Source: a virus
Length of the DNA: 64,000 bases
IMG/VR virus record: IMGVR_UViG_3300045988_082442
Location: 149,709 to 213,708 of that record
Direction: 5' to 3' (one strand)
In this document: positions 15,599 to 56,372 of the stretch, one piece after another
How positions within the stretch are numbered: the first letter of the stretch is position 1
How the letters are laid out: each line of letters opens with the position of its first letter
The notes under the pieces: model-generated
The model's input: the letters and a program-made list of their open reading frames with translations, nothing else
Database searches by the model: none
Told to the model about the DNA's origin: nothing
Program-made: the position numbers and the translations under genes

Positions 15599-15634
15599 GA
15601 ATTTAGGTTATAATATGAGAAGGAGTATTTTATA

Positions 15635-16131: not shown

Positions 16132-16160
16132 TTGACAAAATTTAAAACTTATAATATACT
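16132..16160 (+). promoter_or_regulatory. conserved early-type promoter cassette (-10 TATACT)
   Basis: Same spacer AAATTTAAAACTTATAA. Confidence 0.7.
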
Positions 16161-16190
16161 ATCAACAGTTTAAGTTTGGGGGTATAAATA

Positions 16191-16431: not shown

Positions 16432-16445
16432 GAGATATATAAGAT

Positions 16446-16724: not shown

Positions 16725-16804
16725 AAATAAATAAGTAGATTTAGATGTTAATATAAGTAGAACACCAATCTTTAAAAAAAATTAAAAATATTTTACAAAA
16801 ATGC

Positions 16805-16833
16805 TTGACAAAATTTAAAACTTATAATAATAT
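16805..16833 (+). promoter_or_regulatory. conserved early-type promoter cassette (-10 TAATAT)
   Basis: Same spacer. Confidence 0.65.
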
Positions 16834-18608: not shown

Positions 18609-18624
18609 GTAAAATATTAATGAG
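18609..18624 (+). promoter_or_regulatory. late-type motif copy 7
   Basis: 48 nt before ATG 18672 (gene preceding portal), after terminator 18566-18596. Confidence 0.6.
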
Positions 18625-18632
18625 GGAAAACC

Positions 18633-18661
18633 TTGACAAAATTTAAAATTAGAGGTAGGAG
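18633..18661 (+). promoter_or_regulatory. partial early-type cassette (TTGACAAAATTTAAAA, poor -10)
   Basis: The -35 and half the spacer are conserved; the -10 position is occupied by the RBS. Confidence 0.35.
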
Positions 18662-18671
18662 GAAGATATCC

Positions 18672-19145
18672 ATGAAACAATTAACAAAACAAGATATTTT
18701 AAACAAATTGTATGAAATTGCAGAGAAAGAAGGATTAGATTTTACACGAGAGGTACAAAAAACAATAAGAAATGAAGTAGTGCCAATGGAGGTTATTAAG
18801 ATTTTAAACAAATATGATAAGTCTTTTTTACCAATATATGATACATATAACACAGTGTATTTAAAAAGGTTTAAAAACCCATTATATAGAAATCTAAGAA
18901 ACCCATACATAGAAGAAGCAGAGGCAGCAATAGCATTAAGTTCATTAGTAACTAAGATGCTAATAAGCATTAGTATGATGAAAGAGGAAGATGTAAAGAT
19001 ATTCTCTGCTGTAATGAATATACAAGGAATAAATGAAGCTCTAACTGATTATGCCTTAAATAGAGATGCAGAAGGTATTATGGAACGACACAGACAAGTT
19101 AGAGAATTGTTAGAATTGTTATTTTTAGAAGATAAGGAGGCATAA
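18672..19145 (+). CDS. hypothetical protein upstream of portal, 157 aa
   Basis: GGAGG 8 nt before ATG 18672; the ORF-track start 18633 coincides with a TTGACA box. Confidence 0.7.
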   Translation: MKQLTKQDILNKLYEIAEKEGLDFTREVQKTIRNEVVPMEVIKILNKYDKSFLPIYDTYNTVYLKRFKNPLYRNLRNPYIEEAEAAIALSSLVTKMLISISMMKEEDVKIFSAVMNIQGINEALTDYALNRDAEGIMERHRQVRELLELLFLEDKEA

Positions 19146-19146: not shown

Positions 19147-21063
19147 ATGGGGTTTAGAGATAGAATGCAAAACTTTATGGAAAGCACATTCAAAGTCAGA
19201 ATAATACCTAAACAAACACCAAGAGAAGGAATGGCTATTACATCTGAAAAGAACTCTTTACCAAACCAATTAGATGAAGCTGTTGAATCTGGAAAAAGGA
19301 TTGACCTATCTGGATTAAGAGATTTAATGTCATTAAAAACAGATAGAAATGAGCAATATAAAGCTTACGAAGAAATGGTTGCAGATGGACGTATAGGTGC
19401 AGCTGTTGAGATGTATGCTAACGATACAGTACAACAATCTCCAGAGGGTAAAGTTATTTGGGTAGAAAGCGATAATGCTGATGTAGCATCCTATGGAAAT
19501 AAACTATTAGAAGATTTAGGTGTTGCACAAAATCTTTGGAGTTGGGCATACTGTTTATGGTTATATGGTGACGTGTATTTAGAGTTATTTGAAAATACTT
19601 CTACATTAGGAAATAAACCAACATTATTGACAGAACCAGTAAATCATAATGCTAATTTCCAAAAACAAGTTCCTATTGAAGGAGCATATCTTGAAAGATA
19701 TGTGGAAAAGGTTCCAAACCCAGCAGATGTATATGACCTACAATTCAAAGGTAAGACATCTGGATTTGTTAAATCAAGAGAACCATTAACACCAACATAT
19801 AAAAATAGAATAAACACATATAATGTTACATCATCAACTGAAAAGATAGATATATTATCTCCTATGAAGTTTGTTCATATATGTTTATCACCTAATATTT
19901 CAAGATACCCAGAGAAATTTAGTATAGTACAAGAAACACCAGATAATAAGAATGTGCATACAACTGGTGGAGATGCAATAAATGAAAATTCAGTAGGTGG
20001 ATCTACTTATACTGTATTAAGAGGACAATCAATGTTAGAGAATGTATATGGACCATATCAAGCATTGAAACTAAAAGAAGATAGTATATTATTAGAAAGA
20101 ATAACAAAAGCTTCCATTACAAGAATTATACAAATAGAGCTAGGTGATATGCCAGAAAGTCAAAAAGACAGGGTATTAAGGGATTTAAAGGAACAAATAG
20201 AACAACAACTTCAAATGAATAAATTTACTGGTGATATAAATAGCAGAGCAAGTGCTAACCCATCAGAGAATATAATCTACACAACTACTAAAAATGGTAA
20301 GGGTGTAATTAATACAGTAAATATTGGTGGAGAAGCAGATTTAGGTAATATAGAAGATATTACACAATCTGAGAATAAACTATATGGTGCTTTACAAGCT
20401 AATAAAGCAGCTTTAGGTGCAGATATGGATGGTACTGGATTATCAAATGGTGGTTCATTAACAGAATTAAACTCAATATATGCTAGAAGAATAGTTAGAG
20501 GGCAAACAGCACTAACATCTGGAATAACTACTTTAATAAATATATTTGCATTAAAAGAAGGACTTGCAGTTACTCATGTAAATAACTTTAGAGTTAGAAT
20601 GGTTAAACCAGTAACATCAGAAGATACAAGAAGAGATGATTTATTATCTAATAAGATTAGAAATGTAAGTGATTTACTAAATCTATTAAATGATAAAGAT
20701 ATAATTGACTCAGTATCAAGATTAAAGATTATAGCTAACTTAATGGTTAACTACCTATCTCAACAAGATATTGCAGATGTATTAAATGAAATACTTGAAT
20801 CTCAAGAAGCAGAAGTTGAAGATACAGATAAGGGAGATGGTGATGATACATTTGATGATATTACAACACATGGGGGTTCTGGAAGTAGTTTAAGAGAACC
20901 ACCATCAGGAGGGGAAGCACCTAGTAAACCAAATAGCCCAGATTTAGATACTGAAACAGATACTGAAACAGAACCTAATACGCCAGATTTAGAATCTAAT
21001 GTAGGAGCAGGTTCTACTGATGATATAGACTTATCAGAAATAGAAGGTAAAGATTTATTATAG
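19147..21063 (+). CDS. portal protein, T4 gp20-like
   Basis: By memory of T4 gp20: YKAYEEMVADGRIGAAVEMYANDTV and LKLKEDSILLERITKASITRIIQIELGDMP parallel the gp20 TYRNLM..AVSEIVSDAI and [30 protein letters not shown]. Confidence 0.8.
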   Translation: MGFRDRMQNFMESTFKVRIIPKQTPREGMAITSEKNSLPNQLDEAVESGKRIDLSGLRDLMSLKTDRNEQYKAYEEMVADGRIGAAVEMYANDTVQQSPEGKVIWVESDNADVASYGNKLLEDLGVAQNLWSWAYCLWLYGDVYLELFENTSTLGNKPTLLTEPVNHNANFQKQVPIEGAYLERYVEKVPNPADVYDLQFKGKTSGFVKSREPLTPTYKNRINTYNVTSSTEKIDILSPMKFVHICLSPNISRYPEKFSIVQETPDNKNVHTTGGDAINENSVGGSTYTVLRGQSMLENVYGPYQALKLKEDSILLERITKASITRIIQIELGDMPESQKDRVLRDLKEQIEQQLQMNKFTGDINSRASANPSENIIYTTTKNGKGVINTVNIGGEADLGNIEDITQSENKLYGALQANKAALGADMDGTGLSNGGSLTELNSIYARRIVRGQTALTSGITTLINIFALKEGLAVTHVNNFRVRMVKPVTSEDTRRDDLLSNKIRNVSDLLNLLNDKDIIDSVSRLKIIANLMVNYLSQQDIADVLNEILESQEAEVEDTDKGDGDDTFDDITTHGGSGSSLREPPSGGEAPSKPNSPDLDTETDTETEPNTPDLESNVGAGSTDDIDLSEIEGKDLL

Positions 21064-21934: not shown

Positions 21935-23086
21935 ATGGCAAATGTAAATAAGATTGCAAAATTTCTAAAAGATAGTGTTGAAGAACTTATTAAAATAGAC
22001 GAGGGTTGCTGTGAGCTTAAACTTGATGATGACTTATCATTATTTGTAGGTTGGTCAGGTGGTTATGATAATCAACCAGACAATACAATAATTCAAAGCA
22101 AAAATGACCCAGAATATGCTATAAATGCTGGTATTAAATCAAACCATGAATATCTAAAAACAGACTTTGATTGGTTAAATTATCCTTATGAAGAGGAAAG
22201 CGGAGAAGTTTGGGATTCAGGAATAACAATATCTCCAAATGAAGATTATGAAAAAGATGCTCAATGGTTTGTAGACCAATATGCAGAAATAAGAACAGCA
22301 TTAGATAAAGGTGAAATAGTATTAGAAAGTAAGAAAGTAGAAAATGTATATAAAAGTGAAGATATAACATTTCAAGAAATAGAAGCAAGAATGGATAATG
22401 CTGAAGACTATGCAGATTTATATGAGGCAGCAAGTCTAATAGCAGATACAAGTTTAAGAATAGATGTAGAAAATCTAATTGGACAATGTGAAGATGATGA
22501 AGATGAAATAGACCAAGCAGTATCAATTATATGTAGTGATTTATTAGACGCTTATGCAAATGAAGAAAATGTAGAACATTTTGAAGAAAGCAAAAAAGTA
22601 GGAGAAAAGAAACTACAAGAAGATTGGGCAGAGGATGTTGACTTTGTTGCAGACTATGTATTAGCAAATGTAGATGGAAAAGACAATGTTGAATTTGAAG
22701 ATTTAAGAAATATCATACATGATGGTTTAAAAGAATTTTACCCAGAAATGAGTGAAGAAGAATTAGAAGATAAAGAATCTGATATAGAACCAGATATAAG
22801 AACTATATTATCTTTAAATGGTTATGGTACAGACTTTGTAACAGGGAATGTAACAACAGACATTGATAGTTTAGAAGAAGGCAAGAAGATAGAAGAAAAA
22901 GATACTAAACAAGAATATCAAGACTATTGTAAAGATTTAAAAATAGATGCTAATAAGAAATCTTCTGTAAATAAATTCTTAAATGACTATGCTCAAAATT
23001 ATACTAAAATGAATGGTGTGTCTAATCTACAATCAGAAATTGACAGAGTTAAGAAAGAACTAAGAGAAAGTATTACAAGAAAATAA
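21935..23086 (+). CDS. acidic multi-module protein, 383 aa
   Basis: Long ORF, start 2 nt after the upstream stop; D/E-rich. Confidence 0.8.
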   Translation: MANVNKIAKFLKDSVEELIKIDEGCCELKLDDDLSLFVGWSGGYDNQPDNTIIQSKNDPEYAINAGIKSNHEYLKTDFDWLNYPYEEESGEVWDSGITISPNEDYEKDAQWFVDQYAEIRTALDKGEIVLESKKVENVYKSEDITFQEIEARMDNAEDYADLYEAASLIADTSLRIDVENLIGQCEDDEDEIDQAVSIICSDLLDAYANEENVEHFEESKKVGEKKLQEDWAEDVDFVADYVLANVDGKDNVEFEDLRNIIHDGLKEFYPEMSEEELEDKESDIEPDIRTILSLNGYGTDFVTGNVTTDIDSLEEGKKIEEKDTKQEYQDYCKDLKIDANKKSSVNKFLNDYAQNYTKMNGVSNLQSEIDRVKKELRESITRK

Positions 23087-23156
23087 TAAATAATTACCAG
23101 TAAAGAGGATTTATATAAAATCCTCTTGAATGGGATTTATATAAAGGAGTAATGAT

Positions 23157-23450
23157 ATGGCAAAGCAAATTGTTGAATATAAAGTAAAAGACAGAGCTTC
23201 TTTAAATGAACTTGAAAATAAAGTAAAGAATGCCAGAAATAGTAACGATTATATCCTTATCAAGTTTGGTAGAAAAGGAGAATTTATTAGAGTAGATTTT
23301 GCAAAAGACCAAACTTATGGTGTTTCACATAACCTATACAATATGGAATTTATAGTTAAGTTAAATGTTATGACAAGACAATATAAAGTAGTAAATATTA
23401 GAAAGATTGCTGATTTCATATTTGATTGGGTTAATAGATTAAATCGTTAG
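23157..23450 (+). CDS. small basic hypothetical protein, 97 aa
   Basis: AAGGAG RBS. Confidence 0.75.
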   Translation: MAKQIVEYKVKDRASLNELENKVKNARNSNDYILIKFGRKGEFIRVDFAKDQTYGVSHNLYNMEFIVKLNVMTRQYKVVNIRKIADFIFDWVNRLNR

Positions 23451-23517
23451 GCGTCAGGTTCGGTTCTGTGCCAATTTAATTACATAGGTAATAAATTTAT
23501 ATAGGAGGTTAGTAAAA

Positions 23518-25569
23518 ATGGAAAATAATCAAAAAGAAATCATTGACATTGCATTAGATAGACTAAACCAAGAAGGATTATGGTTTACTACAAAAGAAGA
23601 TAAACTATATGCTAATGCAAAAGATTTATACAAACTAGATAAGTTTGGTGAACTAGAAGATAAATCAAAAGAAAGACTAATTGCTGAAGTGGAATCATAT
23701 TTAGGCGATGGAGCTACATTTATTATAGAAGCAGTAGACCAATGGATAGAGGATAATATTGCAGAAGGATTATTAGGTTATGTAGATACATTAGCTATGG
23801 ATTTTGAAATTCCAGAAGCAGTTGAAAATACAAATTCTTATTCTGAACAAGGTGTTGATAATTTAGAAACAACAGTTGCTAAAGAAGCAGACAAAGCTAA
23901 AAAAGAAGAAGGAAAAAAGATAGTGGAAGATAACGATAGAGATTTTGATGTATATCAACAATACATAATGAGTAATGTTTATTGTGATAATGAAACAATG
24001 ATGACAAGCCCAGAAATAATAGAAGATAATGCTGGTTTAATAGCAGAAGATGCTGCTAAAGAAGTTGTTGCACAAATATTTGATGGGAAAGAACCAGAGG
24101 GAATATATCAAGCAACATTAGAAGATTATACAGAAGAAATAAAAAGAGTTATCTTAGCAAATATTGACAGAATTGTATATCTTCAAAATACAGAACAAGA
24201 AGAGTTAAATGCAAAACTAACAGAAGCAAAAGCAGATGGTTATTCAAAACCAGTTAAAGTAGATGGTAAATGGTTTAGATATAATTATAAATATAATGAA
24301 TTAGAATATATAACACATTCTAGTAATGAATTTGGACCTATTGAAGTAATAGATAGTATAGGTGTTGACCCAGAAGATTGGAGAGAAGATAAAGACTTAT
24401 GTATTCAAAGATTTTTAGAAGATATTAAATCAGAAGAAGATGTAGATATATCAGAATTTGATAGTTTATTTCCTAAAAAATTAAAAGAAATAAGCAGTAA
24501 AGTAAATTGTATGCACTATGCTTATAATGAACCAAATGTATATAGGTATATGTTTACAAATAAGAAAGATGCTGAAGAAGCTAAATCTATTTTAGGTCAA
24601 TACGGAAAAGTAGAAGAAGTAGACCCTATGGAATTTTCTGAATATGAAGATAAGAAAGACTTAGATAAAGCAAAAGCATGTCTTGTAGTTACATTTAATT
24701 CTGGTGTTTTAACTGAAAGTAAGAAAGAGGAAGATGCTGGTAGTGATGATAATACATTATCAATGGATGTAATTAAATTCTTAAAGAATACAACATATAA
24801 AAATAAACCAGTTGCAGTATTAGATTATGAAGGTGTTGAAGATACATTTGGAAATGAATATATAGTTAGAATGAGAGTTTATATTGAAGAAGCAGATGGA
24901 GATTATAGACTTGTAATTAAAGGCTCTTATACTAATGAAAATGGAACACCTTTTGCTTGGAGCAATGGTGGTTGGGAAGATAAATCAGGTTACACAAGGG
25001 AATTTACTATAAATGAAGCTGAAGTAGAACAACTATGCCAAGCTATTATAACAAAAGACGAAGATGAATTATATGGTTTCCTTGAAACATACGATAACAA
25101 TTTCAGAGATGACTTTGCTTCTTATCTTGCAAAAGGTTATGACAAATATAGTGATGAAGGAAAGAAGGATAAATCTGTAAATTTTAATGAAGCCCTTGAT
25201 GTTAAATCTAACAGAAAGGCTCTAACAGAGGGGGCTAGAGAAAGACTTGATGAAAGAAATGAACAAAGTGCCTCTATCATAGATAAAGCTTTACAAGGAA
25301 TATCAGAAGATACATCTGATAAAGAAAGTGGAATAATAATTAAAACAAGTGAACTATTTAAGAAACTATCAGACAGGGGATATGACGTACAAGTAAGTTT
25401 TGATAATGGGGAAAGTACAAGTTCAATAGCTATTGGACAACAAGGTGCAAATGTTCTTATAACAATAACAGATGCTGACCAACCATTAAGAGCCTTTATT
25501 AGTGGAAATCTTGAAATAAATGATGACAGTTTAAAAATGATAAAGAGTATAATGGAGGTGCTTAAATAA
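23518..25569 (+). CDS. acidic giant protein, 683 aa
   Basis: Long ORF, AGGAGG RBS. Confidence 0.85.
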   Translation: MENNQKEIIDIALDRLNQEGLWFTTKEDKLYANAKDLYKLDKFGELEDKSKERLIAEVESYLGDGATFIIEAVDQWIEDNIAEGLLGYVDTLAMDFEIPEAVENTNSYSEQGVDNLETTVAKEADKAKKEEGKKIVEDNDRDFDVYQQYIMSNVYCDNETMMTSPEIIEDNAGLIAEDAAKEVVAQIFDGKEPEGIYQATLEDYTEEIKRVILANIDRIVYLQNTEQEELNAKLTEAKADGYSKPVKVDGKWFRYNYKYNELEYITHSSNEFGPIEVIDSIGVDPEDWREDKDLCIQRFLEDIKSEEDVDISEFDSLFPKKLKEISSKVNCMHYAYNEPNVYRYMFTNKKDAEEAKSILGQYGKVEEVDPMEFSEYEDKKDLDKAKACLVVTFNSGVLTESKKEEDAGSDDNTLSMDVIKFLKNTTYKNKPVAVLDYEGVEDTFGNEYIVRMRVYIEEADGDYRLVIKGSYTNENGTPFAWSNGGWEDKSGYTREFTINEAEVEQLCQAIITKDEDELYGFLETYDNNFRDDFASYLAKGYDKYSDEGKKDKSVNFNEALDVKSNRKALTEGARERLDERNEQSASIIDKALQGISEDTSDKESGIIIKTSELFKKLSDRGYDVQVSFDNGESTSSIAIGQQGANVLITITDADQPLRAFISGNLEINDDSLKMIKSIMEVLK

Positions 25570-26363
25570 TGAATATTACAGATTTAATTGGGGAAGATAA
25601 AGTTGATAGTATGATAAGAAATAACCCTTGCTTTGGTTTTGTAGAAAATTATACAATAGATGGTGATATTCTTACTATCAAATCAAAAATGTCAATTACC
25701 TATTATAGACTAAAAGAAGATAACGGAGTTATGTATGCCTATATGATAGGATTAGATGGTAGCCAATTAGGGGATGAATTTCCCCTTGATTGGCAAGAGG
25801 CAGAAGCTGATGGTTTAGTAGAAGAAAAAGAATTACCTGAAGATTTCAATGAAGATGAGTTAGATAGCAGAAAACAAAACCTACAAGAAAGTGTAAATTG
25901 GAGTTACTTTGACAAATTTAGAGATGTAATAGATAAATTTATGCCAGACCAAGGAGAGGGAGAAACTTATGCTTCTCAAATAGCAACTGCCATAAATAAA
26001 TTAGTTTATAAATGGTACAATGATGGTGATGTTTATGATAACAGCTGTTATTTAGAAGGATGGGCTAATGATTTATCTGACTATGCAAACTGGTTAGCAA
26101 AAAATGTTGACGGTGCAAAAGATATACTTGACAATATCTTTGAAGCTAGAAACGATAGTGATTACGAAAACATTTTAAAAGCACTTGCAGACAATTATTT
26201 ATCTATGGAATTTTTAGATAGAGCATCTGAAAAATCTAAAACTGGAAGCATTTATGATTGTGCTGGAGATTATAGTTTTGATGAACATAGATGGGATGAA
26301 GATGAGGACGACTATTGGGAAGATGATTATGATGAAGATGAGGAAGATGAGGAGGATTACTAA
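25569..26363 (+). CDS. acidic protein with DE/W-rich tail, 264 aa
   Basis: TAATG overlap with the upstream gene; tail WDEDEDDYWEDDYDEDEEDEEDY. Confidence 0.85.
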   Translation: MNITDLIGEDKVDSMIRNNPCFGFVENYTIDGDILTIKSKMSITYYRLKEDNGVMYAYMIGLDGSQLGDEFPLDWQEAEADGLVEEKELPEDFNEDELDSRKQNLQESVNWSYFDKFRDVIDKFMPDQGEGETYASQIATAINKLVYKWYNDGDVYDNSCYLEGWANDLSDYANWLAKNVDGAKDILDNIFEARNDSDYENILKALADNYLSMEFLDRASEKSKTGSIYDCAGDYSFDEHRWDEDEDDYWEDDYDEDEEDEEDY

Positions 26364-26950
26364 TGGATGAGGTTGCAGATTATATAAATAATATGGAACA
26401 AGATATGCCAGTAGAATATTCTACACTTCTATTCAATAATAAATGGGAGTATCTATTAGATGCAGCAAAAGATAGAAAGAGAGCAATAAATAAAGCATTT
26501 AAAGATAAAAGTTGTAGATACTCTGATTCTTTTCTAAGAACTCAACTAGACATAACAGAAAGAGCAATAGATGAGTTAAAGAGAAGAAGTAAGGAGGAAA
26601 CTATGAAAAAGGAAAATCTAAACGAAGCAGTTGATAAAGATATATTTGATGAAAGAGATAAAAAGATATTCCAAGATTTAAAAGATAAAGAAGAACCAGA
26701 AACTGTTTATGATTTACTTGTTGCAAGAATTGGACAAGAAATAACAGTTGGAGAATTAAATACAGTTCTACAAAGCATCTTTGGTAAATATGATGATATA
26801 TTCTTACTTGAAAATGATTTGTATAATGCAGATAGAGACCAATTACAAGATTTAGTAATTTGGGATGACGATGATGAATATACACTTACATTTAAAGTAA
26901 TTGATATGTTAGATGGAACTATTGAACTTACTGATGTCAATGTGGAATAA
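26363..26950 (+). CDS. acidic protein, 195 aa, with in-frame internal SD-ATG at 26603
   Basis: TAATG overlap; internal AAGGAGG plus 6 nt plus ATG at 26591-26605. Confidence 0.8.
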   Translation: MDEVADYINNMEQDMPVEYSTLLFNNKWEYLLDAAKDRKRAINKAFKDKSCRYSDSFLRTQLDITERAIDELKRRSKEETMKKENLNEAVDKDIFDERDKKIFQDLKDKEEPETVYDLLVARIGQEITVGELNTVLQSIFGKYDDIFLLENDLYNADRDQLQDLVIWDDDDEYTLTFKVIDMLDGTIELTDVNVE

Positions 26951-26979
26951 AACAAATACCATAAGTTTTGAAAAACCCC

Positions 26980-27008
26980 TTGACAAGATTTAAAACTTAT
27001 GGCATTAT
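26980..27008 (+). promoter_or_regulatory. early-type promoter cassette variant (TTGACAAGATTTAAAACTTATGG CATTAT)
   Basis: One spacer change, weaker -10. Confidence 0.55.
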
Positions 27009-27036
27009 TCATATAATAATTTAAGGAGGTAAGTGT

Positions 27037-29385
27037 ATGAGATTAGAAGAAAGTCATTTAGATGATTACCTTGCAGACAATGAATATGCAGTAACTTACA
27101 TAGACGGGGAAGGTAAAGAAAAACAGATTAAATTTAAACCTAATAAGAACACTAATATTGCAGGTATTCAAAAACAATTAGGTGAAACATATAAAGATTT
27201 CTTTAAGTTAAAAGAAATCAAAGGAGGAGAAAAAATGCAAGAAAGTAAAAATATTAAGGACTTAACATTAGCAGAAAGAATATTGTTAAATGCAATCAAG
27301 ACAGTAAATAGTGCTTATGATTTAGATAATGTAGTTTGCACAACGATACCATCTACTGGAGATGTATTAGTATCAACTAAAGATGGTAAGGATATATGCA
27401 CAATAGCAAGACATAAATTTGCAATAAATGGTGATGACACAGAACTTATTGATGAATTAAGATTTAATGGTTATTGGAAAGAACCAGACTTTGAGGATAA
27501 AGATACATTAGAGGAAGAAGTTTTAATTGAAAAAGATGGTAAATACGATACAATGGCATTTGCACAATGGCTACCAATGTCATTTACAGATTATGTTGAT
27601 AGTCATATTAAAGATGATTATGAAGAAATGGGAAGTAACTATAATAAGATAGAAAACTTTATTGAAGATTATGTATTACAATATCAAGAGGACCATTTAG
27701 ATGCAGAAGAGCAAGAAGAGTTTGAATATGATTTAGCAAAAGATTATGTTAGATATAAATTAGATAATATTGAAAAGAAGGAAGAAAAAGTATTAACATT
27801 ATCAAATGGTAAATTCAAAAAAGGAGACATATATGTAAATGGTAATGGTGCATTGATTAGAATAACAGATTATACAAAATCAGGAACACCTCAATATGAT
27901 ATAGGTATGCCAACAGATTTTGCAATGGGTACTCACACTTGTAAAGGAATGGCAAGTGATGAGGAATTACAAGCACTTTTAGATAATAATGGATATAGAA
28001 AGATAAGTGAAAGCAGGGAAATCAAAACAGAAGCATCTGCTTTATCAGCAAAAGACGAAGCAAATACAGTTATAGTAAATAAAAATCAATTTGGGTATAA
28101 TACAATAGCAATAATAATAGATGACACAAATAAAAGATACCAATTAGTATCTGGACAATCATTACCAAATGGAAGATATAAGAAAGCATCAAAGAAAGCA
28201 ATTAGACAAAAAGCTGAAGATTTAAAAGCATCTGGTTATACAGAAGTTAAAGGTCCTAATAGTTTAAGTGAATCAGTAGAACTAAAGACTGGTTCTGCTG
28301 AAGATATAATGAAAGGTAAAGCATTCTCTGTAAAAGATACAGAAATATTAAATACAGTTATGGATGCTTTAAAATCAGAATTAGGTCCAGATTGGGAAGG
28401 AAAATCATTGATAGATATTGAAGATATAACATTTAATACTATTGATGAATATTCAAAAGACCATAATGAAGATATAGACCCACAACCATACTATACACAA
28501 CTAAAGATGTTGATTGGTAGAAATGATTTATCAGAAGGTAAAGATACAAAATCAGATGAATTGAGTAAAGAAGATATTGTTAATTTATTAGATAATGGTC
28601 ATATCTTAACTGCTGGTAAAAAGAACTATACACCAACAGAGTTCTTATCTGAAAAAGGTAAGATTTACTTTAACAATAGAGAAATTAGCTTTGGTTGGCA
28701 AGAACATCCTAGCTTAAAAACTGCTGATGATTTAGCAGATTTCCTATTAAATTTACAAAAAGAAGGATTTGAAGTAACACATAGTGATAGAACAGAAAAG
28801 GACACAATTACTGAGAGTGCTTCAAAAGAAGATACACTAACAAAACTTGCAAATAAGATACTAGATTTCTATGGGGAAGATATGGGAAATTATTTTGATG
28901 AGATAGCAGGAAAAGAAGAAGATGTTTTTAATAATATACTTTCTTCACTAGAAAATAAAGATGAAAGTGATATAAATAAGTTTATAGAAGATATGGAAGA
29001 AGACGAAGGTAATGAAGATACTGTAAATCAACTTAAATCTATATTAAATGAATGTAAAGAAACACTTATAGAAAAAGATGAAGTAGATGAACCAGATACA
29101 GTAATTGAGTATGGTATATTATTTGAAAATGGTGATGATGAATTTTATTCAGATAAAGAAGAAGCTGATAAAAGATTTCAAGAAATTATAGATAATGGAA
29201 ACCTAGAAGATGTTGTTCAATACTATAAGAAAGAATGGATAAAAGGGGAAAAAGATTACGAAGAAGGAGATGTAGAGGTATATTACACAGAAGGTGATAT
29301 TCTACATGAAGAATTATTTGGTGCTTCTGACAAAGTATATCAAGATAGTAAAGAAAAAGGTTTATATTCAGAAAACTTAAAATAA
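27037..29385 (+). CDS. acidic giant protein, 782 aa, with in-frame internal SD-ATG at 27235
   Basis: Promoter 26980-27008; internal AAGGAGGAG plus ATG at 27221-27237. Confidence 0.85.
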   Translation: MRLEESHLDDYLADNEYAVTYIDGEGKEKQIKFKPNKNTNIAGIQKQLGETYKDFFKLKEIKGGEKMQESKNIKDLTLAERILLNAIKTVNSAYDLDNVVCTTIPSTGDVLVSTKDGKDICTIARHKFAINGDDTELIDELRFNGYWKEPDFEDKDTLEEEVLIEKDGKYDTMAFAQWLPMSFTDYVDSHIKDDYEEMGSNYNKIENFIEDYVLQYQEDHLDAEEQEEFEYDLAKDYVRYKLDNIEKKEEKVLTLSNGKFKKGDIYVNGNGALIRITDYTKSGTPQYDIGMPTDFAMGTHTCKGMASDEELQALLDNNGYRKISESREIKTEASALSAKDEANTVIVNKNQFGYNTIAIIIDDTNKRYQLVSGQSLPNGRYKKASKKAIRQKAEDLKASGYTEVKGPNSLSESVELKTGSAEDIMKGKAFSVKDTEILNTVMDALKSELGPDWEGKSLIDIEDITFNTIDEYSKDHNEDIDPQPYYTQLKMLIGRNDLSEGKDTKSDELSKEDIVNLLDNGHILTAGKKNYTPTEFLSEKGKIYFNNREISFGWQEHPSLKTADDLADFLLNLQKEGFEVTHSDRTEKDTITESASKEDTLTKLANKILDFYGEDMGNYFDEIAGKEEDVFNNILSSLENKDESDINKFIEDMEEDEGNEDTVNQLKSILNECKETLIEKDEVDEPDTVIEYGILFENGDDEFYSDKEEADKRFQEIIDNGNLEDVVQYYKKEWIKGEKDYEEGDVEVYYTEGDILHEELFGASDKVYQDSKEKGLYSENLK

Positions 29386-29388
29386 ATC

Positions 29389-29404
29389 ATAAAATATTAA
29401 TGAG
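29389..29404 (+). promoter_or_regulatory. late-type motif copy 8 (ATAAAATATTAATGAG)
   Basis: 52 nt before ATG 29456; its 3' end is the 5' arm of hairpin 29399-29431. Confidence 0.55.
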
Positions 29405-29434
29405 GGCTGTATATGTCTTGCAGCCCTCATTTTA
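29399..29434 (+). terminator. terminator-like hairpin overlapping late motif copy 8
   Basis: AATGAGGGCTG / CAGCCCTCATT 11-bp stem plus TTTT. Confidence 0.65.
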
Positions 29435-29455
29435 AATAAGATAGGAGGAATTATA

Positions 29456-32400
29456 ATGTCTAACAAGCTAATTGAAGCATTAGAAGTACATGATGAATTA
29501 AATCCAGTACTTTGGGATGGAATGGAATTAAAAGATGAAGTTAAAAATAAACTATTAGAGATTGCTGATACCTTTATAAAGGGGCTAGAATATCCAATAA
29601 ATGTAGCTGATATAAGATTTTTAGGTTCAAATGCTAGTTTTAATTACAATGAAAACTCTGATATAGACTTACATATTATTTCTAATTTTGATTTAACTTA
29701 CATAGATAAGAACATATTACAACTATTGTATAATTCTAGTAAGAATAACTTTAATAACAATCATGATATATCTATACATGGTATTCCAGTAGAAATTTAT
29801 GTTGAAGATATGAACAGTATGAATGCTACAAATGGTTCTTATAGTTTAATAAAAGATGAGTGGGTTAAGATACCAAAACCAATAGACTATGTCATTCCAG
29901 ATTATTCCAAAGAGTTAAATGATTATTTAGATGAATATAATCAAGTTATGAAAGATGGAACATTAGATGAAATAGAAGAACTAATAAACAGAATTTATAT
30001 TGGAAGAAAAGATGGTTTAGCAACTGAGGGGGAAGCAAGTATTGGAAACTGTGTATTTAAAGAATTAAGAAATAGAGATGTTATTAGTAATTTAAGAGAT
30101 AGATTACATGAATTAGAAAGCGAAGAACTTACACTTGAAAACAAGAAACTTGAGGAAGATGTAATTGACGATGTTGCTGTTGAAATGCAAGACGAACCAA
30201 CACCAGAGCAAATAAAAGAAAAAGAAGATGAATATACTGAATATATAGAAACACATATAAAAAATGTAAGAAAAGCTTATGATAGAATTGTAAAAGATTT
30301 AATCAAAGATGAATTTACTGATACACAACTAAAACAGTTAGAAGATAATTTAGAAGTACACGATAAAGATAAATATATACCATTTATGTTTGATGCTTAT
30401 AGAAGAGACCATTTACCAGTAAATGAAAAAGAAAAACAAGAAGCCAAAGAGGATTATGATATTGCCTGGGATTATCATAAGCATAATAATACTCATCATT
30501 GGGAATATTGGTTAAATAGTGCTGGTGAGTTTGCTCAAAACATAGATGGGGAAGCAATGAAACTTGCTTATGCAGAAATGTTTTGTGATTGGTTATCTTT
30601 TGGTTTTAGAAAGGAAGAAACATCAGCTACTGGTGAGTCTACTGAATTTAAAACATGGTATGGTGAGAGTGGTAAGAATATAAAAATACATCCACAATTA
30701 AGAGAATGGTTTGATGATAAAGTTGATACTATTATAAAATATATTGACGAGAATAAAGATACTATTTATGTAGATAAAGAACAAGAAGGAAAATGCTTGA
30801 CAAAATTTAAAAATTGTAATAAAATAGAAGAAGATGATAATATTAATAGAGAGGTAGGTGAAAATATTATGTCTAATGAAGATAAAGAAAAAGAATTAAA
30901 AAGAATGCAAGAATGGGTAAATAAAGTACTAGAAAACAGAAAACTTGAAGAAAGCTCTATGAGTAAAGTAGCAGAATATATTTCTCATTACCAAGTTGGG
31001 TTTATAACAGCTTTTAGACAAGGTAATACAAAAGCAGTAAATCAAGATAATAATCACTGGTTAAAGCTAGATATAATACAAGATTTAGATAAAACAAAAT
31101 TATCTTATATAAAAGTAGATGGTACTTATCCAGAACAAAAGAAGAATGCAGATGGTACAGACGCTGAAGGAGAATATGTGCAAATATTTGAAGAAACTTT
31201 TGCAGTAATAAATGACCAATATAGAAGTGATGACTTTATAAAAATTATGTGCAGTCTAGTTAAGAAATATAATCAAGATAGTACATTGATAGTATTCCCA
31301 CCATCAAATGATTCTAAAAAGATAGAGGATAATATAACAGCAGCTGAATATGATGGAGATGGTAATAAGAAAGCAACATATAAAGGTTTTACTGTTAGTG
31401 TTTATGACAAATATAAGGATAAAAATACTGCAGTTGAAGAATATTACACAAAAGTTGGAAACAAGAAACTAAGTTTCACTAATAGACAAGAAGTAAAAGA
31501 ATGTATTGATAAAGAACCAGAATATGATGTTTACACTTATAGATTAAAGAAACAAGGAAATCAAGGAAGTATGCTAGAATCCCAAAGAAAACATATCTAT
31601 GTAGAAGGATTATTAAATGAATTTAATAAGTTAGAAGAAAGTAGTATGTCAAGGATATTACAACTAATTCAACAAGGATATTTTGCAACAGTAAGTGCTG
31701 ATATTAGTATTATAAGATATGCTTTCTATGTAGCAAAAGATGAAGAATTTATTAAATTAGTTGATAATGATATTCAAAACTTTAATAAACTAGACAACCA
31801 AGAAGAAATAGAAAGTGAACTAAGCTCTAAATATGGTAAAGATTTATTGACATATAATAAAGATGCTTATAAGCAATTACAAGAATCTGTAAGAAATACT
31901 GGATTAGGATATGTTCCAATAGAAGGAGTTTATACTTACTCTGATAGCAATCAAGAAAGTACAGAACCATCATTGTTCATATCTATATCAAAAGACAAAC
32001 GAGCTTCATTTGAGGACTTTAAAAATACTATAATAGATATAGGTAATACTTACTATCAAGAAAGTGTTGTTATAGGCAATTCTGATAAGTCTGACAATGG
32101 GGATATAAAAGCAGATAATGATGGAAAAATAACTATTGATGCTTCTTTATATGATTGTGAAACAGGTTCAGTCATAGCATCAGAGTATTATGATACAGAA
32201 TATAATAAAATTAAGTTATCTGATTTTTCAGGTTTCTTATCAAGATTAGTTAAAGATAAGAATAAAGCATTTGCAATGTATAAATTTGATGAAAGTGTAG
32301 AAGTATTTAATGGTATTGATACATCTTCATATACAAAATGTTTACAAGCAGGTGGAGTACATGAAAGATGGAAACAACATATAAACCCAGTAGCAAATAA

Positions 32401-32986
32401 AATGACAGAAAAATATTCTAAGCTACAAGAAGATTATGATGACTATAGAAGTAAAGTTAAGTTTGATTTGGAATATAGAGTAATAGCTCCTATTACTGTA
32501 AAACAAGAAGATGAATTTGACACATACGGAAAATATGACCAAGAAATGGACATTGATATAGATAGTCTTTATGAATCTTATGAAGATGTAGCTAAACAAA
32601 TTCAAGACTTAGTTGATGATGAAGATTTATTAAAAGAAATCTTCCCTAATGTAGGTTTAGGTAGAGTATATGTTGGAAATATTGAACTTGATGAAGATAA
32701 ACTTGATTTTGATATTGGTTTCAGTAGTATAGTAGACCCAGTAGAGAGAGGTAATGATATAAAACTTGATGAAGATGAGATTAAAGAACAAATAAAAGAT
32801 TTAGTTATTTGTATCATTGAAAATGTTGATTATGTATCAGCAAAGCAAGTATATACAGAATATACTGGGGAAGTAGATGAGGATGGAGAACCTATTGAAG
32901 AAGAAATTACTTCTGATAATGAAATAAGCTATTCTATAAATCTTGATAAATCAAAAGATATTGAAATACACAAAATAAGTGAATAG
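29456..32986 (+). CDS. 1176-aa composite protein: Pol-beta-type nucleotidyltransferase domain, HD/HHW-motif domain, then duplicated acidic modules
   Basis: LGSNASFNYNENSDIDLHI fits G[SG]-x10-DxD; HDKDKY...HNNTHHWEYW...EMFCDW; two KLEESSMS(K/R)-led paralogous modules. Confidence 0.8.
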   Translation: MSNKLIEALEVHDELNPVLWDGMELKDEVKNKLLEIADTFIKGLEYPINVADIRFLGSNASFNYNENSDIDLHIISNFDLTYIDKNILQLLYNSSKNNFNNNHDISIHGIPVEIYVEDMNSMNATNGSYSLIKDEWVKIPKPIDYVIPDYSKELNDYLDEYNQVMKDGTLDEIEELINRIYIGRKDGLATEGEASIGNCVFKELRNRDVISNLRDRLHELESEELTLENKKLEEDVIDDVAVEMQDEPTPEQIKEKEDEYTEYIETHIKNVRKAYDRIVKDLIKDEFTDTQLKQLEDNLEVHDKDKYIPFMFDAYRRDHLPVNEKEKQEAKEDYDIAWDYHKHNNTHHWEYWLNSAGEFAQNIDGEAMKLAYAEMFCDWLSFGFRKEETSATGESTEFKTWYGESGKNIKIHPQLREWFDDKVDTIIKYIDENKDTIYVDKEQEGKCLTKFKNCNKIEEDDNINREVGENIMSNEDKEKELKRMQEWVNKVLENRKLEESSMSKVAEYISHYQVGFITAFRQGNTKAVNQDNNHWLKLDIIQDLDKTKLSYIKVDGTYPEQKKNADGTDAEGEYVQIFEETFAVINDQYRSDDFIKIMCSLVKKYNQDSTLIVFPPSNDSKKIEDNITAAEYDGDGNKKATYKGFTVSVYDKYKDKNTAVEEYYTKVGNKKLSFTNRQEVKECIDKEPEYDVYTYRLKKQGNQGSMLESQRKHIYVEGLLNEFNKLEESSMSRILQLIQQGYFATVSADISIIRYAFYVAKDEEFIKLVDNDIQNFNKLDNQEEIESELSSKYGKDLLTYNKDAYKQLQESVRNTGLGYVPIEGVYTYSDSNQESTEPSLFISISKDKRASFEDFKNTIIDIGNTYYQESVVIGNSDKSDNGDIKADNDGKITIDASLYDCETGSVIASEYYDTEYNKIKLSDFSGFLSRLVKDKNKAFAMYKFDESVEVFNGIDTSSYTKCLQAGGVHERWKQHINPVANKMTEKYSKLQEDYDDYRSKVKFDLEYRVIAPITVKQEDEFDTYGKYDQEMDIDIDSLYESYEDVAKQIQDLVDDEDLLKEIFPNVGLGRVYVGNIELDEDKLDFDIGFSSIVDPVERGNDIKLDEDEIKEQIKDLVICIIENVDYVSAKQVYTEYTGEVDEDGEPIEEEITSDNEISYSINLDKSKDIEIHKISE
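30797..30825 (+). promoter_or_regulatory. early-type promoter cassette embedded in frame inside ORF 29456..32986 (-10 TAAAAT)
   Basis: AAAATGCTTGACAAAATTTAAAAATTGTAA TAAAAT, including the upstream AAAATGC context of the intergenic copies. Confidence 0.55.
30869..32986 (+). CDS. possible nested 705-aa C-terminal product started from an internal promoter, RBS and ATG
   Basis: Full promoter copy 30797-30825, GAGGTAGGTG RBS and ATG 30869, in frame with 29456..32986. Confidence 0.4.
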   Translation: MSNEDKEKELKRMQEWVNKVLENRKLEESSMSKVAEYISHYQVGFITAFRQGNTKAVNQDNNHWLKLDIIQDLDKTKLSYIKVDGTYPEQKKNADGTDAEGEYVQIFEETFAVINDQYRSDDFIKIMCSLVKKYNQDSTLIVFPPSNDSKKIEDNITAAEYDGDGNKKATYKGFTVSVYDKYKDKNTAVEEYYTKVGNKKLSFTNRQEVKECIDKEPEYDVYTYRLKKQGNQGSMLESQRKHIYVEGLLNEFNKLEESSMSRILQLIQQGYFATVSADISIIRYAFYVAKDEEFIKLVDNDIQNFNKLDNQEEIESELSSKYGKDLLTYNKDAYKQLQESVRNTGLGYVPIEGVYTYSDSNQESTEPSLFISISKDKRASFEDFKNTIIDIGNTYYQESVVIGNSDKSDNGDIKADNDGKITIDASLYDCETGSVIASEYYDTEYNKIKLSDFSGFLSRLVKDKNKAFAMYKFDESVEVFNGIDTSSYTKCLQAGGVHERWKQHINPVANKMTEKYSKLQEDYDDYRSKVKFDLEYRVIAPITVKQEDEFDTYGKYDQEMDIDIDSLYESYEDVAKQIQDLVDDEDLLKEIFPNVGLGRVYVGNIELDEDKLDFDIGFSSIVDPVERGNDIKLDEDEIKEQIKDLVICIIENVDYVSAKQVYTEYTGEVDEDGEPIEEEITSDNEISYSINLDKSKDIEIHKISE

Positions 32987-32991
32987 AAATA

Positions 32992-33018
32992 AAAGACAGG
33001 TTATAACCTGTCTTTTTA
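32992..33018. terminator. bidirectional terminator between convergent genes
   Basis: AAAGACAGG..CCTGTCTTT palindrome flanked by A run and T run. Confidence 0.75.
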
Positions 33019-33417
33019 TACTTCTGGTTTTGGTTTAAATTTAACATTACCTTTTACTGATTTTTCCATAAGGTAAGAGTTAAACTTTTCTTCTCCTAAA
33101 TCTTCTTTTAATTTATCTTGGTCTAATTCTTTCTTTGTATAGGCATGTGTTAGATTTGCTATTATTGACATTCCTTCAAGGTAATCAATATCAGAAGCTT
33201 CCATACCTTCATACATATTTTTCTTTGCATCATTATAAATTATGTTATTATCTTCTAGTTTCTTTTGTAATGCTAGATATTCTTGTAATACCTCATTATC
33301 CCTATTCTTTTCTAGTAGTTCTTCTAGCATTACCTCTATTTGATTATTCTCAGTAGCTGCGTTATCAGCTTTGATAAACTCCTCTTTAAAATCATATACA
33401 ACTTTCTTCTTTGCCAT
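33016..33417 (-). CDS. hypothetical coiled-coil protein, 133 aa, reverse-strand moron-like cassette
   Basis: Own reverse promoter 33490-33518, GGAGG RBS, bidirectional terminator 32992-33018. Confidence 0.8.
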   Translation of the reverse strand: MAKKKVVYDFKEEFIKADNAATENNQIEVMLEELLEKNRDNEVLQEYLALQKKLEDNNIIYNDAKKNMYEGMEASDIDYLEGMSIIANLTHAYTKKELDQDKLKEDLGEEKFNSYLMEKSVKGNVKFKPKPEV

Positions 33418-54189: not shown

Positions 54190-54260
54190 GACGGAAGAAT
54201 ATTATTATTTTCTTTCTATTCTCATACATGTATTTGAATAAAAAGAAGAGAGGTAATAGC

Positions 54261-55790
54261 ATGGGAAAGTCAATGATAATTGAAGCTCAAGATTCTTCTC
54301 TTGTATATGAAAAAGGACAAAAAGGTGTTCTTGGAAAACTTAGTGGGGTATTTGCTAATTTCCGTACTGGCACTAGAAATGGTGGTAGATTATACAATGA
54401 GGAGCTTATTGATAAAAGAATATTTGGAAATGAAGATGTAATGGAAGCTCTTGAAACAAGAACTCTATTTGGTGAATTAGACCACCCTGAAGGAGATAGA
54501 TGTGAAACTTTAGCTCAAAATGCTGCAGTATCTATAATAAAATTAGAAAAAGATGCTGAAGAAGGAGTTGTAAAAGGGGAAGCATTAATTCTTGATACAC
54601 CATCTGGTAGAACTTTAAAAGCATTAGTAGATAGTGGAGCAAAAATGGGAATATCAAGTAGAGGTATAGGAGAAGAAATTATAAGTAATGGTCAAACAAT
54701 AATAGACCCAGATACATACGATTTCATAACATTTGATATAGTTGTTACACCAGCAAATAAAGGTGCAAGACTTTCATTAGTTGAAAGTAAACAAAAAGAT
54801 ACAATGCTATATAAATCAATTAAAAAAGAAATCAATGAGTGTATAAGTTTAAATCAGCTAGACCAATTAAGTAAAGTTGTTGAAAATAACATCCCAGTTG
54901 GTAAAGCAAGATTAAAGAAACTTATTGAAGATAAGATAACTACACTTACATCTGATGAAGATATTACAGATAAAAGTGAAGATATACAAGGTAATGAAGA
55001 TATTATACCTAACAATGTTCAAGAGGAACCAGTTGAAAAGACTGATAAACTTGAGGAACAAAAACTTGTAAACAATGAATTACAAGATGCATCTGCTAAA
55101 CTATTAGAGGAAAATAAATCTTTATTAGAAAGAGCAGAAAAAGCTGAAAGAAACAATAAGCTATTGCAAATTAAACTAAAAGAAAGCAGAAAGTTAGAGA
55201 AGAAATCAGAAGTATCTTTAAATGAATCTAAAACAGATAAAGAAGAAATCATTAGAAAACTTAAAAAGATAAATGAAAGTAAACTTAAAAATGTAGAAGG
55301 AACATATAAAGATAAGATTAAATCTTTACAAGAAAGCTTAAAGAATAGTGAAATTGAAAATAGTAAGTTACTTGAAGCAAACAAACTACTAGGAAAGAAG
55401 TCAGTTGAATTGAATAACAAATTAGTAGAATCTAATAAGTTAAACGAAGAAACTAAATCTAAACTAGAAGAAGCACAATCTAAATTAGTTGAGAGTGCAA
55501 ACCAAATTAAAATGTTAGAAAATAAAGTTGTAGAAACTAAAGATGCTAACAAATCAAAGCTTGAAGAAAATAGAAAGCTTGAAGAAAGTAAGATTTTAAA
55601 TCTACAAAATCAATTAGAAGAAGCTAGAAATCAAATATCACAACTAACTGAAGCCAAAGAAAGAATAGCTAAGTTACCATTTAATATAACACAAGCAAAT
55701 CTTAAATATGAAGGCTTACAGCATGAAATAAGTATAAGTGATGATGATAAAGCATTATTCGATACAATGGTTGAAATGAACCAAAAATAA
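54261..55790 (+). CDS. T4 gp21-like prohead core protease fused to a coiled-coil scaffold domain
   Basis: GGRLYNEELI...LFGELDHP...KMGISSRGIGE parallels the remembered T4 gp21 NKRLYPKRIL...LGELNHP...GVSSRGLGS. The C-terminal 300 aa or so is K/E/L/N coiled coil. ATG 54261 is preferred by RBS. Confidence 0.8.
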   Translation: MGKSMIIEAQDSSLVYEKGQKGVLGKLSGVFANFRTGTRNGGRLYNEELIDKRIFGNEDVMEALETRTLFGELDHPEGDRCETLAQNAAVSIIKLEKDAEEGVVKGEALILDTPSGRTLKALVDSGAKMGISSRGIGEEIISNGQTIIDPDTYDFITFDIVVTPANKGARLSLVESKQKDTMLYKSIKKEINECISLNQLDQLSKVVENNIPVGKARLKKLIEDKITTLTSDEDITDKSEDIQGNEDIIPNNVQEEPVEKTDKLEEQKLVNNELQDASAKLLEENKSLLERAEKAERNNKLLQIKLKESRKLEKKSEVSLNESKTDKEEIIRKLKKINESKLKNVEGTYKDKIKSLQESLKNSEIENSKLLEANKLLGKKSVELNNKLVESNKLNEETKSKLEEAQSKLVESANQIKMLENKVVETKDANKSKLEENRKLEESKILNLQNQLEEARNQISQLTEAKERIAKLPFNITQANLKYEGLQHEISISDDDKALFDTMVEMNQK

Positions 55791-56026: not shown

Positions 56027-56372
56027 TAACTAATATTTAGTAATTTTCTAAATTCGGGTAACATTAAACACTGTGAATTGCTGGAACATCCTAAAGCTCA
56101 AAGTACCAAAGTGTGAAAATCTTTGAGATGTAACAATGGACAATCAGCAGCTGTTATTTGACAAATAAATGTCAAATATGCAGTTCAACGACTATCGAAA
56201 GTATAGACTAAGAGAAATACTTAGTTGAATAAATGAGTAGAGTACAACCTAAGTAGGTTGGAAGTGCAGTGCAACATATAAAGGTTAAAACAATATATGT
56301 TGAAGATATAGTCTAATCTTATATGAAAGTATAAGAGTTATAATGGAAACGATTATAGCGTAATGAATAATG
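56027..56372 (+). ncRNA. group I intron (IA2-like, td-like), ORF-less, 346 nt
   Basis: P1: exon AATGTTGCT 56018-56026 pairs with GGTAACATT 56057-56065, with the terminal U.G pair. P7: GACTAT 56190-56195 pairs with ATAGTC 56308-56313. AACGACTATC and GAAGATATAGTCT match remembered td-intron strings. P8 hairpin 56272-56302. P9 hairpin (6-nt TGAAAG loop) 56318-56335 plus a further 3' hairpin. Terminal G at 56372. Confidence 0.8.

Follow-up and report, generated by a model that had tools for sequence, protein, structure and literature searches.

In-frame nested genes of phages include T7 gene 4A/4B, lambda C/Nu3 and T4 gene 49, which has an internal late promoter. Nested genes with internal translation starts also encode the two-polypeptide endolysins of Gram-positive phages (PMC9430671, PMC12203907). 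Two further themes are the polyvalent proteins of phages and conjugative elements (Iyer, Burroughs, Anand, de Souza, Aravind 2017; PMC5512222) and the PeSLs, mobile regulatory cassettes of T4-type phages (Arbiol et al. 2010, PMC2839356; Comeau et al. 2014, PMC4122927). Here we describe a locus that combines all three: polyvalent proteins, in-frame nested genes, and repeated regulatory cassettes as recombination joints. The locus lies in a stretch of 64,000 nucleotides (nt), positions 149,709 to 213,708 of the IMG/VR virus record IMGVR_UViG_3300045988_082442, hereafter the window. Three of its open reading frames (ORFs), of 1176, 782 and 195 amino acids (aa), read in frame through strings that look like complete expression signals of separate genes. 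A preliminary description of this DNA had noted these strings and offered two readings: recent fusion of neighbouring genes by loss of stop codons, or nested full-length and C-terminal isoforms made from one frame.

We found the most complete set of signals in the 1176-aa multi-module ORF (29456..32986, + strand). Pfam and segment mapping against relatives gave the order NTase (residues 1–235), DUF5662 (257–422; E = 3e-22), linker, SAM (S-adenosylmethionine)-lyase-like module 1 (∼490–715), module 2 (∼716–980) and module D (∼985–1176). The NTase motif GS...DxD is readable in the translation. The inter-domain linker (residues 436–471; 30761..30868, +) is encoded by a sigma70-type promoter cassette, a 5' leader and a Shine-Dalgarno (SD) sequence. 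The cassette, AAAATGCTTGACAAAATTTAAAAATTGTAATAAAAT (30791..30825, +), was recognized by its match to a repeated element and by its conservation: TTGACA stands at 30797–30802 and TAAAAT at 30820–30825, with a 17-nt spacer between them. The SD (GAGGTAGGTGA) and its start codon span 30851..30871 (+), with GAGGTAGGTG at 30851–30860 and AGGTGA at 30856–30861, 7 nt ahead of the in-frame ATG at 30869. In an AlphaFold (AF2) model the linker is unstructured (predicted local distance difference test score, pLDDT, below 50), and it is rich in indels among relatives. Thus, the interval 30797–30871 reads as a sigma70-like promoter, a ∼40-nt leader, an AGGTGA SD and an ATG, from which a 705-aa product headed by a SAM-lyase module would be made (30869..32986, +; two SAM-lyase-like modules and module D). 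We refer to this site as junction 1.

Similar to the known nested genes, the three ORFs carry an in-frame SD and start (30869, 27235 and 26603) and share a common stop codon with the inner frame, so that full-length and C-terminal products are predicted. They differ in that junction 1 also embeds, and translates, a complete promoter and 5' leader, that its inner start lies at a cassette seam beyond which relatives have swapped modules, and that the two polypeptides are predicted only. The embedded promoter, SD and ATG strings all lie where the preliminary description had placed them, and the inner products of 705, 716 and 115 aa that it had predicted are correct. It had also pointed out that, in the 1176-aa ORF, the outer product and the inner one both begin with MSN, which is true but trivial. 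We found no description in the literature of a complete promoter, leader, ribosome-binding site (RBS) and start cassette that is translated as an inter-domain linker and conserved across a clade.

To place the locus, we searched for relatives. The window has a G+C content of 30%, and metagenomic contigs of 216–224 kb, labelled uncultured Clostridium or Bacilli, carry its closest relatives; the source is a jumbo phage of ∼220 kb from gut Firmicutes. When GenBank phages were searched for near-identical DNA, the region had no match, and a protein-mode search gave distant NTase matches only (Lak, cyanophage and other genomes) and no annotated relative. Scans of viral and genome contigs with an alignment of the N-terminal part recovered mostly NTase-only relatives. 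Such distant loci have no promoter cassettes of this kind, showing that the phenomenon is confined to a close clade. We compared the DNA of the window and nine distinct relatives (10 genomes; L007 is a duplicate of L001). Seven of these genomes, the window and six relatives, form the canonical set for junction 1.

Junction 1 was found to be conserved throughout. The ORF is single and continuous in 24 homologous protein clusters that are 46–99% identical in their N-terminal half. In 10/10 genomes, the −35 starts with an in-frame TTG leucine codon, although TTG makes up only 9.7% of leucine codons, and the spacer between −35 and −10 is exactly 17 nt, while the length of the linker varies on both sides. 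The −35 is TTGACA in seven genomes and TTGAAA, TTGCAA or TTGTAT in the other three, each of which has a TGn-extended −10. In the seven canonical genomes, (A)GGTGA or GGAGGTGA precedes an ATG (GTG in L005) that lies 43–49 nt past the −10. Two more genomes have SD-starts further downstream.

We then asked whether the nucleotides or the encoded peptide are conserved. In a codon alignment of the canonical genomes, third-position identity was 0.905 in the ten cassette codons and 0.76 from the SD to the start, versus 0.65 in the NTase, 0.635 in DUF5662 and 0.53–0.59 in the neighbouring linker. The amino-acid identity of the cassette was only 0.57. High identity at third positions combined with low amino-acid identity shows that selection acts on the nucleotides and not on the peptide. 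Synonymous conservation that is stronger in the cassette than in the catalytic domains is what maintained nested expression would be expected to leave in the sequence. The reading frame is also preserved. The preliminary description had proposed to look for stop codons at these junctions in relatives: across 50 codons of junction 1 no in-frame stop is present in any of the 10 genomes, versus 5–14 in each of the other frames (P ∼2e-4 per genome for an open frame if unconstrained). Thus, the fusion at junction 1 and its embedded signals are old and maintained.

These results bear on the first of the two readings, in which stop codons were lately lost and the promoter, SD and ATG strings are decaying, non-functional relics. 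Relics are not expected to outdo coding sequence, yet third-position identity in the cassette exceeds that of the domains (0.905 vs ∼0.64). Moreover, junction 1 is common to relatives down to 46% protein identity, its 17-nt spacer is invariant, and its start alternates between ATG and GTG. For the 1176-aa ORF, a recent loss of stop codons is therefore rejected. Decay does find some support in the −35 of L167–169, which is degraded, and in the other two ORFs, considered below; for the locus as a whole we judge recent fusion improbable. That an error of assembly or sequencing conceals a stop codon or frameshift between two genes is less credible still. No point in favour of such an error was found, and independent assemblies agree on continuous ORFs: the cluster P0001 (99% identical; 19 member sequences on 2 contigs) has the same continuous 1176-aa ORF, as do the nine distinct relatives from different samples, and P0054, which is the 195-aa ORF, occurs on 12 contigs. 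We consider an artefact extremely improbable.

Downstream of the cassette, the architecture changes from genome to genome. The first module after it is C1, C2 or D, while the part upstream is conserved at 46–72% identity. This alternation shows that the cassette marks an exchange point.

The embedded promoter belongs to a repeated family, with the consensus AAAATG-CTTGACAAAATTTAAAA-N7-TAnAAT. Eleven exact copies of its 17-mer core, CTTGACAARATTTAAAA, are present in the window; allowing up to 3 mismatches raised the number to 14 versus 2.3 expected, which 0/100 shuffles equalled. The copy at 30796 is the sole intragenic cassette in the window; all remaining copies are intergenic, including one upstream of the 782-aa ORF (26979..27008, +). 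Where the next ORF belongs to the gene list, its start lies 39–101 nt downstream of the intergenic cassette; three copies at 15570–16805 precede small ORFs outside that list. The relatives each carry their own near-identical intergenic copies, and the internal cassette resembles the intergenic ones of its own genome. In 5/6 intergenic copies, the frame of the TTG codon is the sole open frame. The open frame of the cassette would thus read TTG-ACA, the same frame that is used at junction 1.

In these respects the cassette resembles the PeSLs (PMC2839356, PMC4122927): it is a near-identical, early-type promoter cassette, present in many copies at the borders of variable genes, and relatives exchange sequences at it. 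PeSLs, however, are intergenic elements of Gram-negative T4-like phages that combine a promoter with a stem-loop. The sequence of the present cassette is unrelated to them, and its internal copy, which has no adjacent stem-loop, lies within an ORF and joins protein domains.

Could the embedded signals be chance matches in AT- and purine-rich coding sequence? In favour of chance, a generic sigma70 scan of the region showed no excess of promoter-like sites (72 vs 85 expected). In 13 kb, the cassette at 30797–30825 tied with the bona fide intergenic copy at 21513 as the top match (11/12). Weak SD-like strings are also common among internal ATGs. Chance does not account for a 17-mer that is repeated exactly, with its flanks, 11 times and conserved in relatives. 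Nor does it account for the strong SDs: the 42 genes of the window contain 1,512 internal ATGs, 283 in frame and 1,229 out of frame, and a full GGAGG-type SD at proper spacing precedes just two, 27235 and 26603, which are both in frame and both sites of the preliminary description; not one out-of-frame ATG has such an SD. Chance is thus effectively refuted and its probability is very small.

What would the inner unit of junction 1 express? A bidirectional terminator (32991..33016) separates the 1176-aa ORF from a convergent gene (33016..33417), and the internal promoter can therefore serve only the 705-aa product. S-AdoMet_lyase (PF23780) matches the product in two stretches with 49.0 bits, versus a Pfam cut-off of 28 bits (E = 7.7e-13). 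No PDB entry matched the inner product by sequence. The AF2 model of residues 380–720 shows a helix after the inner Met, an alpha/beta domain at residues 502–649 (pLDDT 65–89) and a second dip in confidence at NRKLEESSMS. The top Foldseek PDB matches of residues 502–649 are the phage SAM lyases 6ZM9, 6ZNB and 8BB1_E (E ≥ 4.5e-3, TM-scores 0.37–0.58, from a low-confidence model). The T3 SAMase is an early gene, transcribed by the host RNA polymerase from a host-type promoter. A host-type promoter ahead of a SAM-lyase module is thus sensible. SAM lyase is the anti-restriction and anti-BREX enzyme of T3 (PMC7877911; bioRxiv 10.1101/2023.02.27.530186). The present module is like this family (PF23780, PMC7877911) in its Pfam match above cut-off and in having phage SAM lyases as its top, though weak, fold matches. 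Unlike in the T3 enzyme, the predicted domain is tandemly duplicated and fused to further modules, and the long isoform also carries an NTase-DUF5662 head.

The full-length ORF appears to be controlled differently. No sigma70 cassette is present upstream of its ATG at 29456. Instead, a motif of a second class, the GTAAAATATTAATGAGG family, lies 64 nt upstream (29392..29405, +) and is a putative late-type promoter. The motif has 13 loci in the window (1292, 1330, 5264, 7513, 10344, 16068, 18612, 29392, 33564, 36261, 53616, 54177 and 61471), all intergenic and 12 of them on the + strand. Ten of the 12 + strand copies lie 25–64 nt before the next co-oriented start, and the other two lie at 158 and 378 nt. 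The starts that follow include those of the portal operon, the prohead protease and the tail/fibre operon. The motif is kept upstream of the homologous ORF in 9/10 genomes, with similar hairpins in the relatives. From its distribution, it is probably a phage-specific, late-type promoter.

The motif upstream of the 1176-aa ORF overlaps the 5' arm of a terminator-like element, a 13-bp hairpin followed by a T-run (29399..29435, +). Folding confirmed the hairpin (−21.5 kcal/mol, z = −3.7), which a terminator scan had missed at 29399–29431, presumably from its loop-length limit. We infer that the hairpin blocks read-in from the sigma70 promoter at 26979 and that the two products are under separate control. 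The full-length NTase-DUF5662-SAM-lyase protein would then come only from transcripts begun upstream, behind the motif of the virion-gene type, and one frame would give two products under separate transcriptional control.

Some further observations were made on these elements. A hairpin often follows the GTAAAATATTAATGAGG motif and uses the GAGGG of the motif as its 5' arm, and the copies at 1292 and 1330 form an inverted pair. Composite arrangements of terminator stem-loop and promoter occur elsewhere in the window, for example at 16068–16147. Upstream of the portal operon (18612–18672) lies a hybrid element, in which the second motif is directly followed by the sigma70 −35 half (CTTGACAAAATTTAAAA); it has no −10 and runs directly into GAGGTAGGAGG and ATG. 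In L001, L003, L005, L166, L168 and L169, the full-length ORF is called with a TTG start after the hairpin (e.g., aggaggcattacaTTG), and in the window with ATG.

We next considered the 195-aa ORF (26363..26950, +), which consists of an 80-aa N-terminal module and a module that we call X (residues 82–195). The internal SD AAGGAGG (26591–26597) is followed after 5 nt, rather than the 6 nt given in the preliminary description, by ATG 26603 (SD and start, 26591..26605, +), which is the retained start of module X. The fused 195-aa form is represented by 10 clusters, 57–100% identical, all of which keep the Met; nine of the ten also keep KE[EG], the peptide that corresponds to AAGGAGG. Nine other clusters contain X as a stand-alone protein of 113–117 aa that begins MKENLNE at the same Met. 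In further proteins, X follows different N-terminal partners, and some of these fusions have a YodL-like domain inserted. L172 has X as a gene of its own, with a stop codon, TAGGAGGT and then the ATG of X, so that a relative does have a stop codon at this junction. In the window and in L174, the frame of an extra 80-aa module, which has no stop codon, continues through the SD-ATG of X. Thus, the signals at 26603 are the retained start of a former gene that is elsewhere still a separate gene.

The fusion that had been proposed at 26603 is therefore borne out, but it is not recent, given the identities of 57–100% and the Met kept in every cluster. The latter also speaks against stop codons lost lately. 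In favour of that explanation, the split/fused polymorphism of module X is real, and an o264-like module and X are fused in L003 and separate in the window. In L003 (2615–3460), the o264-type module (residues 93–250) and X form one 281-aa protein; in the window (25569–26950), the two lie in adjacent genes, with the TAA of one abutting the ATG of the next.

The 782-aa ORF (27037..29385, +) is a chain of at least 7 modules (∼2–66, 66–161, 164–252, 331–412, 500–590, 588–677 and 669–763). Its N-terminal 66-aa module ends DFFKLKEI, and the internal signals lie at the seam between modules 1 and 2: AAAGGAGG at 27220–27227, 7 nt, and ATG 27235 (27220..27237, +). A strong SD-start is present at this seam in 3/7 genomes, as AAAGGAGG/ATG in the window, GAAGGAGAGGT/ATG in L001 and AAGGAGG/GTG in L003, with differing linker peptides. 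The restricted occurrence of this start also speaks for decaying relics. Nested isoforms are supported by the conservation of the signals at junction 1; the start at 27235 is a candidate. When all long ORFs of the window and its close relatives were pooled, SD-starts were more frequent in frame than out of frame (17/628 vs 30/3381, odds ratio 3.1, p = 4e-4), homologous sites being counted repeatedly in this comparison.

A third in-frame junction was observed in the upstream polyproteins of four relatives (L167:720, L168:386, L169:190 and L171:430). It has the form AAGGAGG(G/A)..., 7–8 nt, and ATG (L169, L171) or GTG (L167, L168), and is translated as K-E-E/G-K-x-M/V.

The three ORFs sit in a run of large acidic ORFs (21935..32986) 3' of a T4-type portal gene (Portal_T4; 19147..21063, +). 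With a Peptidase_S77 gene and a Gp23-type capsid gene (56370..57542), the portal gene makes up a T4-type head module in the window. The preliminary description had overlooked this multi-module, post-portal context, as well as the protease-type seam motifs described below and the different class of promoter before the full-length ORF. An exhaustive homology search showed that segments of the 782-aa ORF each recur at other positions and in other proteins, and that several stand alone as proteins of 65–116 aa. A word-indexed search had given no matches for the first 160 aa (27037–27516), but this tool is insensitive to short, low-complexity queries, and the exhaustive search of representatives found homologues.

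These features recall the polyvalent proteins (PMC5512222). In both, several unrelated effector or anti-defence domains (here NTase, DUF5662, two SAM-lyase-like modules and more) share one polypeptide, the genes lie beside portal or virion genes, architectures are highly variable between relatives, and delivery with the DNA has been proposed. Unlike those proteins, the seams here keep expression signals, and the candidate processing enzyme is a separate prohead protease of the gp21 type. No MuF or zincin-type (MPTase) peptidase domain was found in the focal ORFs at Pfam E ≤ 0.01. The terms 'internal promoter' and 'SAMase' are absent from the polyvalent-protein paper (PMC5512222).

The candidate enzyme is encoded at 54228..55790 (+; Peptidase_S77, E = 1e-10) and is fused to a scaffold-like C-terminal half. 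This half, coiled-coil and ∼300 aa long, holds most of 13 near-identical K/S-L-x-E-S/A repeats; the protein as a whole contains [LI]xE[SA] 13 times versus 1.7 expected. The repeats suggest the function of a self-degrading scaffold and would define the likely cleavage motif, L-x-E-[SA], which we assigned to the gp21-type protease by analogy with T4. In T4 and giant phages, such proteases process the internal proteins and Alt, and the ejection proteins, respectively (PMC5694885, PMC10052503).

We counted the motif in the post-portal block and found 20 occurrences of [LI]xE[SA] versus 6.5 expected (0/2000 shuffles), while the rest of the window proteins had 16 versus 14.7. The blocks of the relatives contained 69 versus ∼31 expected, and control genes were not enriched. 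A looser motif, [LIFVM]xE[SAG], reached only z ∼1 in the two focal ORFs, and the enrichment became apparent with the stricter motif and pooled tests. In the 782-aa ORF, five internal L-x-E sites lie on the edges of homology blocks, with 59 edges within 6 aa versus 13.5 expected, a coincidence equalled by 1/20,000 random placements. The locus resembles the known gp21 substrates (PMC5694885) in its T4-type head genes and in an x-E-type motif (here L-x-E) over-represented in the protease-scaffold protein and the candidate cargo. Known sites, however, remove propeptides, whereas the sites predicted here would separate whole modules. A capsid-targeting leader was also sought, and L-x-E showed no general excess near N-termini (6/46 gene starts, equal to background).

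By analogy with these substrates, the full-length proteins may be packaged and then cleaved by the gp21-type protease at their L-x-E-[SA] seams, a proposal to which we give serious weight but somewhat less than even odds. Packaging and cutting at the seams would account for the tolerance of absent stop codons between cassettes. The same facts allow another account, in which the full-length proteins alone are made, packaged and cut, and the embedded signals are tolerated without any role in expression. The enriched motif and its place at module edges fit this account, as do the position of the block 3' of the portal gene, the T4-like head module and the selected continuity of the ORFs. This account leaves unexplained why the nucleotides of the −35, spacer, −10 and SD are conserved more than the peptide requires, why 10/10 genomes use the rare TTG codon, and why GTG occurs at start positions. 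As the sole explanation it is thus unlikely; it is compatible with the explanation that we prefer and does not exclude it.

Taken together, these results are best explained by polyvalent polyproteins that are built from gene cassettes and give rise to nested isoforms, an explanation that we regard as probable. The anatomy of the junctions, their conservation, the selection on signals and on ORF continuity, the modularity and the split/fused polymorphism are shown by the sequences. In the model, the three ORFs would be part of a post-portal block of multi-module (polyvalent) proteins in which each module is an exchangeable cassette, present in relatives as an independent small gene or fused in another order or to other partners. 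In-frame joining of cassettes would cause the signals between them to be translated as linker peptide.

Several points weigh against this explanation. The first concern the signals themselves. The −35 is degraded in L167–169, and L169 is also without a convincing SD-start: the inner unit can thus weaken without loss of the fusion. The start at the 27235 seam is absent in 4/7 genomes (L166, L167, L168 and L171), and X forms the C-terminus of proteins of 449, 281 and 528 aa in L001, L003 and L005, respectively, without an SD-ATG. The relatives also share phylogeny, so that counts such as 10/10 overstate independence. Other points concern the proposed functions. We infer from sequence that translation starts at the inner sites, how the two promoter classes are timed, and that the long proteins are packaged and cleaved. 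The sigma70-type cassettes also drive other post-portal ORFs, so that the early/late division may not be clean. The AF2 model has low overall confidence (mean pLDDT 54), and the fold matches to SAM lyases carry weak E-values. Finally, the enrichment of [LI]xE[SA] is weak in the two focal ORFs alone (p ∼0.05–0.06), and we rejected, as a general rule, that every module starts with a cleavable leader of the form M-x(0-6)-[LI]-x-E, since the 6/46 gene starts that have one equal background.

A bolder version of the preferred explanation goes as follows. Regulatory cassettes with one open frame would serve as in-frame joints, by which protease-separable polyproteins are assembled and reshuffled from free-standing genes. 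The SAM lyase would then be delivered twice: pre-made in the capsid, within a late full-length protein that is cut at L-x-E seams, and again by immediate transcription by host RNA polymerase from the embedded early promoter. We put this version forward as a speculation that is rather unlikely to hold in full.

Other features of the window were noted in passing. The preliminary description had seen the same fusion theme in the giant fibre genes, at IKYEPTYF seams. IKYEPTYF is indeed present three times, but it marks the ends of tandem fibre units, without SD or promoter; we rejected these seams as the same phenomenon, as they reflect domain duplication without expression signals. The two giant fibre proteins (44756–48601 and 48676–52392) are paralogues with 38–40% identity, made of tandem ∼450-aa units that end in a tail-collar-like segment and IKYEPTYF. 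Three paralogous HNH/homing-endonuclease genes were found at 8750–10318, 57655–59361 and 62020–63012, one of them directly 3' of the Gp23 capsid gene, and an unusually long ORF-free stretch of ∼340 nt (56030–56369) precedes the capsid gene. Mobile elements of the intron or intein type are possible in the head module.

Polyvalent phage proteins are widespread, and the origin and deployment of their parts are largely unknown; this locus shows the seams directly. A module can be a stand-alone gene in one genome and a fused domain in another, and the joints consist of expression signals that belong to the genes themselves. A complete promoter-leader-RBS that is under selection at the nucleotide level while being translated as a linker is a natural example of dual coding. 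The locus also offers a testable mechanism for domain shuffling, cassette-mediated and frame-compatible fusion, and a testable model in which an anti-restriction enzyme is deployed in two stages. It is also a caution to annotators that a long ORF in such a phage may conceal products with expression of their own, and that gene calls differ between relatives for biological reasons. If the reading of the cassettes as in-frame joints is true, gene trains would become polyvalent proteins by a general route that has not been described before, with a dual mode of deployment.

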